Origin: Dictyostelium discoideum
Lineage: Eukaryota
Length of the DNA: 64,000 nt
Reading direction: 5' to 3'
Assembly: GCA_000004695.1 (NCBI GenBank)
Contig: CM000152.2
Span: 1,376,001 to 1,440,000 of the forward strand
Part shown: piece by piece, positions 38,868 through 43,179 of the stretch
How positions within the stretch are numbered: position 1 is the first letter of the stretch
Layout of the letters: each line of letters begins with the position of its first letter
Translations under genes and position numbers: made by a program
The notes under the pieces: generated by a model
What the model was told of the DNA's origin: nothing
What the model saw: the letters and a program-made list of their open reading frames with translations, nothing else
Database searches by the model: none

Positions 38868-39206
38868 ATGGCAACTCTTCAACTTCCACAACATTTTCAA
38901 ACTACAATAAATAATAATAATGCAAATAATATAAACATTTCAAAAAGTTTACCACAATCACCAATTACAACTACAAGAAATCAATATTATTTTTACTCGA
39001 AATCACAACATAACTCACCATGTATATTATCACAAATCCAACAAGCTAGAGAATTATTAAATACACTTGAACAACAATATAAAAATAAAAATAAATGTAC
39101 AATTGAATATGATAGTAGTAGTTTAAATAGTTTAAAAGATGTTCAAAATAGTATTATAGAATTAAATAAAAATTTAAATAGTACCGAAAATAATAATAAT
39201 AATAAT

Positions 39207-39294
<88 letters not shown>

Positions 39295-40175
39295 TTAAGA
39301 ATAATAATAATAATATTAATATATACAATAGTAATTATAGTAACAATATAAATAGTATCACCAACCACCCAACTGTAAATAATTTAAAAAGTAACGAATT
39401 ACAAAATAATAATCCTTTTAACAATGTATCACCATTGATAATTAGTGAGGGAAATCCTATAATTTTAGCAAATAATTATAATTATAATAATAATAACAAC
39501 AATAGTAAAGATTATATCAATAATAACGAACATGTAATTGAAATGAATACTATTTTATCGAATAATAATAATAATAATAATAATAACACAAATAATAATA
39601 ATAATAATAATAGTAACAATTTGAGAAATGATGATTTTAGTGATTTAGTTGATATTGATGTGAGCGAGAATCAACCACAAACACAACAACAGCAACAGCA
39701 ACAACAACAACTAGAAGAAGGAGAAGAAGAAATTACAGAAGCACAAAGAATTAGAGAAGAAAGAATTCAAGAGATTAGAATTAGAATTCAAAATGAAACT
39801 TTATTAAAGAATTTTACAAGATGGAATATTGTTTATGGTTTATTTGGTTTATTAACTGTGGTATCTACAGTTTGTATGTTTATATTAGGTTTTGTAAATA
39901 CAAAAGATAATATAATTTACGCTGGAATTGGTCTTAGTACATTGGGTTTCATTGTAATCAATCATTCAATTCATATAGCCTATAGAAAATCTAGAAGAAA
40001 TATTGAAAACTTTCAAGAGGAATTCATTAGAATTCATGAACAAAATATAAATGACTCTGATTTTGATCCAACTTCAATTCCTTCAAAATTAGAAAAATTA
40101 ACTATTGGTATCTTGTCTTCCCCAAATTTCAATCAAATCACCCCAATATTATCCCCAATTAATTCTAAATTATTA

Positions 40176-40233
<58 letters not shown>

Positions 40234-40355
40234 GCAATCAAAACAGTAATAATAATAATCAAAATAATAATAATAATAATAATAATCAAAATGATATTGA
40301 TAATAATAATAATAATAATAATAATGATAATGGAGCCAATGTTACAACCCCTTAG
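38868..40355 (+). CDS. Hypothetical Asn-rich protein with two predicted TM helices
   Basis: 495-aa ORF. It has roughly 45-Asn, roughly 10-Asn and roughly 60-Asn tracts. The central non-repetitive core contains WNIVYGLFGLLTVVSTVCMFILGF and AGIGLSTLGFIVI hydrophobic segments. Confidence 0.55.
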
Positions 40356-41022: not shown

Positions 41023-41165
41023 ATGGATATTAATAACCTTTCAAAATTAAAAGTTCCAGAACTTAAAAAGGAATTGGAAAATAGAGGTTTCACTAAAACT
41101 GCTGGTTTATTAAAAGCGGATTTAATTGAAAAATTAAAATCTCTATTAGAGAATGAAAATAATTC

Positions 41166-41206
<41 letters not shown>

Positions 41207-41631
41207 CCACTACAACCAATGATAAACAACCAACTCAAAGTATTATAATAAATAATGAACCACAACAAGAACAAATTCAACAAAAACAAATAAATAAAGA
41301 TGAAGATGATAATGCTAATATACCACCTCCACCACCAACCAAAGAAGAATTACCACCTCCACCACCAAATAAAGCAGAATTACCACCACCTCCGCCACCA
41401 CCATCTATTAATAATAATAATAATAATATAGATATTAATCAAAAGTACAATAAAATGGATATTGATATTGAAAATAAAATAATTAAAGAAGAAGTTAAAG
41501 AAATATTTAAATCAAAAGAAAGAGAAGATGAAGAAAAAGATAAAGAAAAAAAAGTTTTAAATATTTTAACTGAAAATAAAAATAATGAACAAATTATTAT
41601 TAAACCAAAAGAAGATATAATTTTAACTTCA

Positions 41632-41717
<86 letters not shown>

Positions 41718-43179
41718 TAGCAATAATAATGGTGAAGAAAAAAAAAGAAAAATTAATGATGACGAAAATGATGATGATGATGATGATTTTGATATTGCAA
41801 CATATAAATTAAAAAAAAAACAAATTAAAACTAGAAAAGATTGTCCATATTTAGATACAGTTAATAGGGATGTATTAGATTTTGATTTTGAAAAAGTTTG
41901 TTCAGTATCATTTCATAATCATAATGTTTATGCATGTTTAGTTTGTGGTAAATATTTTCAAGGTAAAAGTCAAGATTCACATGCAAATTATCATTGTCTT
42001 CAAATGGATCATCATGTTTTTATAAATTTAAAAACTCAACAAATCTATTGTTTACCAGATGATTATGAAGTTATAGATTCATCATTGGATGATATTAAAT
42101 ATTTATTAAATCCAACATTTACAAATGACCAAATTAAAGAATTAGATAGAAATAGTAAACTTTCAAGAGCATTAGATGATTCAAAATATTTACCAGGTAT
42201 AGTTGGTTTAAATAATATTAAAAATACTGCATATGTAAATGTAATAATTCAATCGTTGGCTAGAATACCAACAATTCGTAATTTCCTTTTAAATGTTGAC
42301 AATATTAAAACAAATAAATCACCATTAGTCCTAACATTATCTGAATTGTTAAGAAAAATTTGGAATCCAAAGAATTTCAAAGCTCAAGTTTCACCTCATG
42401 AATTACTTCAAGCAATTCAAAATTCAAGTCAAAAAAGATTCAATATTCGCGAAAGTTCTGATCCTTTAGATTTTTTACCTTGGTTTTTAAATACACTTCA
42501 TAAAGATTTAGGTGGTACAAAACAACCAAATTCAAGTATAATCTATAAAGCATTTAGTGGTGAAATTCAAATTACAACTGATAAACCAATTCCAAAATCA
42601 GTTGATGATGATAGTAGTGATTATGATAATGATGATGGTGAAAATAAAAAATTAAAAACCAAATATTCAAATTCAACTTCAAAACAACCATTTTTATTTT
42701 TAACATTAGATTTACCACCAAAACCAATATTTAAAGATGATCAAGATAAAAGTATTATACCTCAAATTCCATTATTTAATTTACTTTCAAAATATGATGG
42801 TACAACTGAAACTATTTTACCAAATGGTGAAATTAAAAAATATAAAATCCTCTCACTTCCAAATTATTTAATTCTATGTGTTAAAAGATTCTCTAAAAAT
42901 AATTTCTTTATTGAAAAGGAACCTACAATCGTAAATTTTCCAATTAAAAATTTAGACTTAAATGATTATTTACCACCTGGCTCTCCAAAATCAAAATTCA
43001 ATCTATTAGCTACCATTAAACATGAAGGTGACCCAAATAGTGGTAATTTCTCAGTTTATATCAATCATAAAGGTAATGATAAATGGTTTGAAATGCATGA
43101 TTTATCAATTAAAGAAACAATGCCACAATTAATTGCAGTTTCTGAGTGTTTCTTTTTAATTTATGAAAAAATTAATTAA
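41023..43179 (+). CDS. U4/U6.U5 tri-snRNP protein USP39/Sad1-like (SAP domain + ZnF-UBP + catalytically inactive USP fold)
   Basis: The N-terminal KLKVPELKKELENRGFTKTAGLLKADLIEKLK is a SAP motif. CPYLDTVNRDVLDFDFEKVCSVSFHNHNVYACLVCGKYFQGKSQDSHANYHCLQMDHHVFINL is a ZnF-UBP collinear with human USP39. The USP Cys box is GLNNIKNTAYVNVIIQSL, with Ala in place of the catalytic Cys. The C-terminal segment LPNYLILCVKRFSKNNFFIEKEPTIVNFPI is also conserved. Confidence 0.85.

Follow-up and report, generated by a model that had tools for sequence, protein, structure and literature searches.

The gene considered here lies in a 64,000-nucleotide stretch of Dictyostelium discoideum DNA (the window; GenBank assembly GCA_000004695.1, contig CM000152.2, positions 1,376,001 to 1,440,000 of the forward strand), where it occupies positions 41023..43179 of the plus strand as a single open reading frame (ORF) of 718 codons plus stop. 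The ORF is a complete, intronless coding sequence for an orthologue of the splicing factor USP39/Sad1. It runs without interruption, its product begins MDINNLSKLKVPELKKELENRGFTKTAGLLKADLIEKLK, and its intergenic flanks have a G+C content of 12–15% in surrounding DNA that is very AT-rich, as is usual in Dictyostelium. Three domains exceed the curated Pfam cut-offs in this protein (all plus strand): an N-terminal SAP domain (PF02037; amino acids 5–43, 41035..41151), a ZnF-UBP domain (PF02148, 64.6 bits against a cut-off of 22.7; amino acids 293–354, 41899..42084) and a catalytically dead USP (UCH) fold (PF00443, 133.8 bits against a cut-off of 23.9; amino acids 394–702, 42202..43128). In our judgement the locus is best explained, with good confidence, as a Sad1/USP39 orthologue bearing an N-terminal extension particular to group-4 Dictyostelium, the SAP domain of which was most likely copied from the gene for another splicing protein, Acinus.

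In yeast and human, Sad1/USP39 is a catalytically inactive ubiquitin-protease look-alike that serves as a structural component of the U4/U6.U5 tri-small nuclear ribonucleoprotein (tri-snRNP), as known from yeast genetics and human cryo-electron microscopy. Human USP39, as seen in the tri-snRNP structures 6QW6 and 3JCR, is the best PDB match of the window protein (E 1.7e-148, 499 bits), with residues 247–715 aligning to human residues 79–553 with few gaps. Yeast Sad1 (4MSX) follows at E 3.8e-38, and among active deubiquitinases none does better than USP15, at E 5e-24. The family match list is likewise filled by orthologues named U4/U6.U5 tri-snRNP-associated protein 2. Positions 41023..43179 thus encode the Dictyostelium orthologue of Sad1/USP39, which shares with its human and yeast counterparts the ZnF-UBP plus USP architecture and the substitution of both catalytic residues, and aligns with the human protein from amino acid 247 to the C-terminus. 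This orthology had been proposed in an earlier note made from the DNA sequence, and the sequence details quoted there (a SAP string, the Cys box NTAYVNVIIQ and ELPPPPP repeats) are all found in the ORF. The Acinus-type RNA recognition motif (RRM) and the RNPS1-SAP18-binding (RSB) motif are absent from the window protein in the Pfam scan; it is not an Acinus, and the SAP is all that the two proteins have in common.

The N-terminal SAP domain

The SAP domain is a small nucleic-acid-binding module, and the proposal that one opens this protein is borne out by the Pfam scan, in which the match scores 26.3 bits against a curated cut-off of 23.9 (E 5.4e-6). The corresponding segments of the D. purpureum USP39 orthologue and of D. 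purpureum Acinus score 32.9 and 29.5 bits, respectively. In the window protein the characteristic motif (L..LKV.ELK.EL..RG....G..K..LIEKL) is intact. AlphaFold2, when supplied with the orthologue alignment, predicts the expected helix-loop-helix (helix 11–20, loop, helix 31–48) at a predicted local distance difference test score (pLDDT) of 84–94, against 73 without the alignment, and in this model the inter-helix loop reads RGFTKTAGLL and contains the conserved Gly.

Substitution patterns indicate that this domain is under strong purifying selection. Specifically, the 46 SAP codons differ from those of D. citrinum by seven synonymous and no non-synonymous changes (i.e., a ratio of non-synonymous to synonymous rates, dN/dS, of 0); calculated from site counts, the probability that all seven would be synonymous under neutrality is P ~1e-5. 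Against D. purpureum the SAP dN/dS is ~0.17. For the ZnF-UBP region the values are ~0.03 (D. citrinum) and ~0.05 (D. purpureum), and for the USP fold ~0.10 (D. citrinum). The SAP is far more conserved than its low-complexity surroundings, the extension minus the SAP giving a dN/dS of ~0.48 against D. citrinum and ~0.47 against D. purpureum.

The SAP and the ZnF-UBP domain share one ORF in four independent assemblies from three species (the window, a second D. discoideum assembly, D. citrinum and D. purpureum), so that the first ~40 codons, for which the earlier note had allowed an intron or an upstream gene, stand in the same frame as the USP39 body throughout. The closest database proteins, P0001 (from the other D. 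discoideum assembly) and P0002 (D. citrinum), have the same N-terminus as the window protein and are encoded by intronless genes. In D. purpureum, the ORF at L001 5428..6354 (GL871361.1) reads MLDVNNLQKLKVAELKKELEDRGITKTTGLLKADLIEKLK and leads, by way of two poly-Pro runs and a stretch rich in K and E, into the ZnF-UBP domain without a break; the deposited model (DICPUDRAFT_41968, P0004, 472 amino acids) begins at an internal Met and omits ~190 in-frame upstream codons that carry the SAP, poly-Pro and K/E-rich extension. In D. dimigraforme (JBTAPM010000007.1, L008 2290..3050), the extension is annotated as a separate gene of 227 amino acids, with 28 bp between its end and the start of the USP39 model. 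Immediately ahead of the USP39 body, an A-homopolymer there is one base shorter than in the window (A8 versus A9), which breaks the frame; reading on in the other frame recovers the orthologous EEKKRKIN...DDFDIATYKL.

Lineage distribution and origin of the SAP

In the other species compared, the SAP is missing. No SAP-coding sequence lies within 6 kb of USP39 in Polysphondylium violaceum, Tieghemostelium lacteum or Acytostelium subglobosum by tblastn, for which only the SAP sub-query was informative, an uncorrected search with the whole extension yielding hundreds of poly-Asn and poly-Thr matches. Moreover, a divergent His_Phos_1 gene sits ~340 bp (P. violaceum) or ~117 bp (T. lacteum) upstream of USP39 and therefore leaves no room for an extension in these two species. 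Among the 120 best family members, SAP columns or a PF02037 match occur only in two Dictyostelium proteins, and a structural survey of the human spliceosome lists USP39 with zf-UBP and UCH domains only (PMC3424538); both agree with the earlier note, which knew of no SAP in metazoan USP39. The domain is thus absent from metazoan USP39 and from the non-group-4 dictyostelids examined, and restricted to group-4 Dictyostelium (D. discoideum, D. citrinum, D. dimigraforme and D. purpureum). Comparing N-termini beyond D. discoideum accordingly extends the SAP to three further members of this group and does not make it a general amoebozoan feature. In the accepted dictyostelid phylogeny P. violaceum branches beside group 4, and given the SAP distribution on this tree, one gain on the stem lineage of group-4 Dictyostelium is the most parsimonious explanation.

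We searched for the source of the domain by running SAP residues 1–50 exhaustively against 1.84 billion representative proteins (phmmer; E <= 0.001). Of the 32 matches, only one outside the USP39 cluster is close: P0126 (DICPUDRAFT_155741) of D. purpureum, which aligns from its residue 2 with 58.4 bits and 80% identity. The remaining matches are tandem-SAP proteins (scored as summed repeats), bacterial Rho_N-like repeats, or single domains at ~36 bits and <=56% identity. P0126 combines an N-terminal SAP, an RRM whose match to that of human Acinus (6G6S) reaches E 5.9e-8 and a C-terminal RSB motif (27.2 bits against a cut-off of 27.1), and because these together make up the Acinus architecture, P0126 is the D. 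purpureum Acinus. Acinus (ACIN1) is the SAP-RRM-RSB subunit of the ASAP complex; the window protein is like it in the SAP, in the sequence at its start (M(L)DINNLSKLKV) and in the somewhat lengthened inter-helix loop, and unlike it in having neither RRM nor RSB motif and no similarity beyond residue ~40.

Over 43 aligned residues, the D. discoideum USP39 SAP is identical to that of D. purpureum USP39 at 36 positions and to that of D. purpureum Acinus at 37, and the two D. purpureum domains agree with each other at 32. The proportion of synonymous differences (pS) is 0.49–0.59 in all cross-species SAP pairs, which is near saturation, and the SAP copy is therefore old. USP39 and Acinus both begin M(L)D[IV]NNL, which argues that the start codon travelled with the domain. 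Both SAPs also have a loop two residues longer than is typical (two one-residue gaps against 1ZRJ; a Pfam match of 39 residues over 37 profile positions). The SAP of animal Acinus is N-terminal. Arabidopsis ACINUS carries its SAP at the extreme N-terminus as well (bioRxiv 10.1101/2023.08.07.552250), from which it follows that the domain is ancestral in Acinus and derived in USP39. On these grounds, we think it likely that the 5' end of an acinus gene was duplicated onto USP39. Separately, we considered recent gene conversion between Acinus and USP39 and rejected it, as the D. purpureum paralogues (32/43) are less alike than the cross-species pairs and pS is ~0.5–0.6 throughout.

How far this account can be trusted depends, to begin with, on whether the SAP is real and is part of USP39. 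A chance resemblance, arising from a K/E-rich helical segment in a low-complexity, AT-rich genome, might seem to be suggested by a Pfam score merely 2.4 bits over the cut-off and by the weak label on the precomputed SAP match in relatives; we nevertheless find it hardly credible, given that three related sequences pass the curated cut-off, that the motif is intact and modelled with high confidence in the expected topology, that conservation far exceeds that of the surroundings, and that a genuine Acinus has a SAP identical to it at 86% of positions. Whether the SAP segment could instead belong to a small gene of its own upstream of USP39, or to an untranslated leader, with the long ORF an accidental read-through, is a question raised by the D. 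dimigraforme annotation and by the D. purpureum model that begins downstream of the SAP, as well as by our having read the fusion from DNA. We regard this as very unlikely: the one frame persists in four assemblies and three species through many repeat-length changes, every one of them frame-preserving; the D. dimigraforme break is a single base in a homopolymer with orthologous sequence in the other frame; and the linker has a dN/dS below 1, with conserved islands.

The provenance of the SAP is the less secure part. It could be ancestral to USP39 and repeatedly lost, could derive from another SAP gene, or could have passed from USP39 to Acinus, and a comparison that uses one Acinus sequence and draws its signal from 43 residues, at synonymous sites too near saturation for timing to be read, leaves some weight on these options. 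We consider them improbable nonetheless, since nothing else among the 1.84 billion representatives comes close; since no SAP is present on USP39 from human, from three further dictyostelid lineages or from the remainder of the top 120; since Acinus, with its N-terminal SAP in plants and animals, is the older carrier; and since the start codon came along. Several observations limit the account as a whole, and we list them here together. The donor assignment is based on a single paralogue, the D. purpureum Acinus, and on those 43 residues; a word-indexed search with this Acinus minus its EKLEK repeat returned itself as the sole match and no other dictyostelid Acinus. In composition-corrected BLAST the similarity between USP39 and Acinus stops at about residue 36–40, and no similarity is evident by eye upstream of the ATG between their AT-rich 200-nucleotide flanks. 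Fold searches with the small SAP model retrieved no SAP structures, which might be counted towards a chance resemblance but speaks neither for nor against the modelled topology. The D. dimigraforme frame break could be an assembly error or a real disruption, and the SAP is placed in the USP39 protein by the DNA reading frame. Against this background, a duplication of the acinus 5' end remains our preferred reading.

Catalytic site, tether and gene surroundings

The earlier note had drawn attention to a Cys-to-Ala change in the catalytic site. Direct alignment to USP15 places Ala403 (42229..42231, plus strand) on the catalytic Cys (GNTCFMNS in USP15, KNTAYVNV here, within the Cys box NTAYVNVIIQ), and the family alignment places Asn675 (43045..43047, plus strand) at the catalytic His position. 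In a census of 121 aligned sequences, comprising the window protein and its 120 best family members, the Cys column is mostly Asp (109 sequences), with Ser (5), Ala (4) and Glu (3) making up the rest, and the His column holds Ser, Phe, Cys, Asn, Thr and other residues, with His in none. Human USP39 has Asp at the Cys site, where the window protein has Ala, and Ser in the His column. Ala occurs in the Cys column of the window protein, of P0001 (D. discoideum) and P0002 (D. citrinum), and of the EukProt protein P0008; other dictyostelids have Ser. Because the whole family lacks both the catalytic Cys and the catalytic His, catalytic loss is the rule for USP39/Sad1 and Ala403 is just a local variant: the substitution is correct, and ordinary rather than special. 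That the protein might still be an active deubiquitinase, as its well-kept USP fold could suggest, has a probability close to nil, for the nucleophile and the general base are both replaced and orthologues are free to carry different residues in their place (A/S/D/E and N/S/T/F/C), as expected where a site no longer serves catalysis.

The extension as a whole is long, with 273 residues before the CPYL motif in the window protein against a family median of 105. Following the SAP, it comprises (all plus strand) a poly-Thr tract (amino acids 49–65, 41167..41217), a proline-rich segment (amino acids 101–128, 41323..41406) with three poly-Pro runs (IPPPPPTKEELPPPPPNKAELPPPPPPPS, amino acids 100–129), a long single K/E-rich helix (amino acids 140–183, 41440..41571; AlphaFold2, pLDDT ~58–81) and a poly-Asn tract (amino acids 205–236, 41635..41730). 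The poly-Thr, proline-rich and poly-Asn segments are read from the sequence and predicted to be disordered, AlphaFold2 predicting disorder at residues 48–143 (poly-Thr and poly-Pro) and 182–267 (poly-Asn and acidic). P0001 and P0002 have a shorter poly-Thr tract and D. purpureum has none, and the poly-Asn tract differs in length between relatives. The poly-Pro runs, in which the unit K-x-E-L-PPPPP is found twice, as the proline-rich repeat previously described after the SAP, are retained in D. citrinum, D. dimigraforme and D. purpureum. The helix segment aligns with a conserved D. purpureum block, MEIDIKNK...EEKEKEEKVKEIL, and may or may not derive from the EKLEK repeat of Acinus. Taken together, the pattern of predicted fold and disorder and the dN/dS contrast show the extension, as modelled, to consist of a folded head under constraint and a flexible tether that evolves fast. 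At the start of the charged helix, Met146 (41458..41481, MDIDIENK) is conserved in D. citrinum, D. dimigraforme and D. purpureum (MEIDIKNK), and could be an alternative start that would yield a SAP-less isoform.

The gene and its surroundings vary among dictyostelids. The immediate 5' neighbour of USP39 is the His_Phos_1 gene in P. violaceum (L002 4161..5662) and in T. lacteum (L003 4289..5884). The 5' neighbours in group 4 differ, with a 495-amino-acid ORF in the window (38868..40355, plus strand) and a WD40 gene in D. purpureum (L001 1480..5225), and this change of neighbour shows that rearrangement of the 5' flank fell within the interval in which the extension was gained. The 495-amino-acid ORF is extremely Asn-rich, with a hydrophobic stretch near residues 325–365, and its syntenic counterparts in D. 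citrinum and the other D. discoideum assembly have no Pfam match. The USP39 gene itself is intronless in the window and in D. citrinum and has several introns in D. purpureum (L001 6001..8818) and P. violaceum (L002 6001..8507), including, before the last exons, one that is unusually long for a dictyostelid (~0.5–1.4 kb); Rfam finds no match in either locus, long introns included. The exact window protein is not found in a collection of 15 billion proteins, and the gene in the nearest D. discoideum assembly (GCA_054859385.1, L006 5001..7034) differs from it at a pS of ~0.03–0.09 and by changes in repeat length, which places the window in another strain than that assembly or in a very near relative of it.

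Proposed history and function

We propose that the ancestor of group-4 Dictyostelium would have gained an N-terminal extension of ~200–270 codons on USP39, after the P. violaceum split and before D. discoideum and D. purpureum diverged. The first ~45 residues of this extension are the SAP, most likely copied, start codon included, from the 5' end of acinus. The remainder, made up of poly-Thr, poly-Pro, a single long charged helix and poly-Asn, is a tether predicted to be disordered for the most part, and it evolves much faster. From orthology and sequence, we infer that the USP39 body would act at the tri-snRNP, as a non-catalytic factor that holds U4/U6.U5 together before spliceosome activation. 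The SAP would probably serve as an extra, low-specificity anchor to RNA, DNA or chromatin (e.g., pre-mRNA or snRNA) for the tri-snRNP, carried on a flexible leash of ~200 residues, in a role that may be comparable to that of the arginine/serine (RS)-like N-terminal region of human USP39. The poly-Pro runs may offer binding sites to the WW or GYF domains that several spliceosomal proteins contain.

Two comparisons frame this proposal. The N-terminus of human USP39 is an Arg/Ser/Glu-rich stretch of ~100 residues with no recognised domain (PMC3424538), whereas the window protein has 273 residues that begin with a predicted folded SAP. Among other SAP-bearing spliceosomal proteins, human SF3a60, set against yeast Prp9, has a SAP insertion beside its zinc-finger counterpart (PMC3424538) and so offers a precedent for a SAP grafted onto a core splicing protein in one lineage and not in another, although the host protein and the position of the SAP are different, and the likeness drawn is one of domain composition.

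The choice of donor invites a further thought. That the SAP appears to come from Acinus, itself a splicing and exon-junction factor, might be read in the manner of a "Rosetta stone": the Acinus SAP would act at the spliceosome itself (on pre-mRNA, snRNA or a shared partner) rather than as a generic chromatin or matrix attachment module, and group-4 Dictyostelium would use it to recruit or retain the tri-snRNP. We consider this analogy rather doubtful, though not far-fetched. If it were true, a SAP graft kept under strong constraint would inform the poorly defined function of the Acinus SAP.

Part of this picture exists already in automated annotation, where the proteins of D. discoideum and D. 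citrinum carry a precomputed PF02037 match, such that the SAP is a useful detail and no surprise for the field. The T. lacteum orthologue (P0010, L003 6001..7691) is even named "SAP DNA-binding domain-containing protein", although neither its sequence and Pfam list nor the DNA upstream contains a SAP; it presumably inherited this name from the D. discoideum reference annotation. No paper on the window protein or its SAP emerged when the literature was searched for USP39 together with "SAP domain" or Dictyostelium. To this we add the restriction to group 4, the SAP hidden in the D. purpureum and D. dimigraforme models, the strong constraint and the probable Acinus origin.

The scope is narrow—one small clade and a common domain—and what we describe is a real if modest lineage-restricted domain gain. 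Its apparent Acinus origin makes it a clean, datable case of domain transfer between two splicing proteins. USP39/Sad1 is a conserved and essential spliceosome assembly factor in which the role of the variable N-terminal region is poorly understood, and a lineage in which the charged tail has been replaced by a folded nucleic-acid-binding module under strong selection provides a handle on the function of that tail, in a genetically tractable amoeba.

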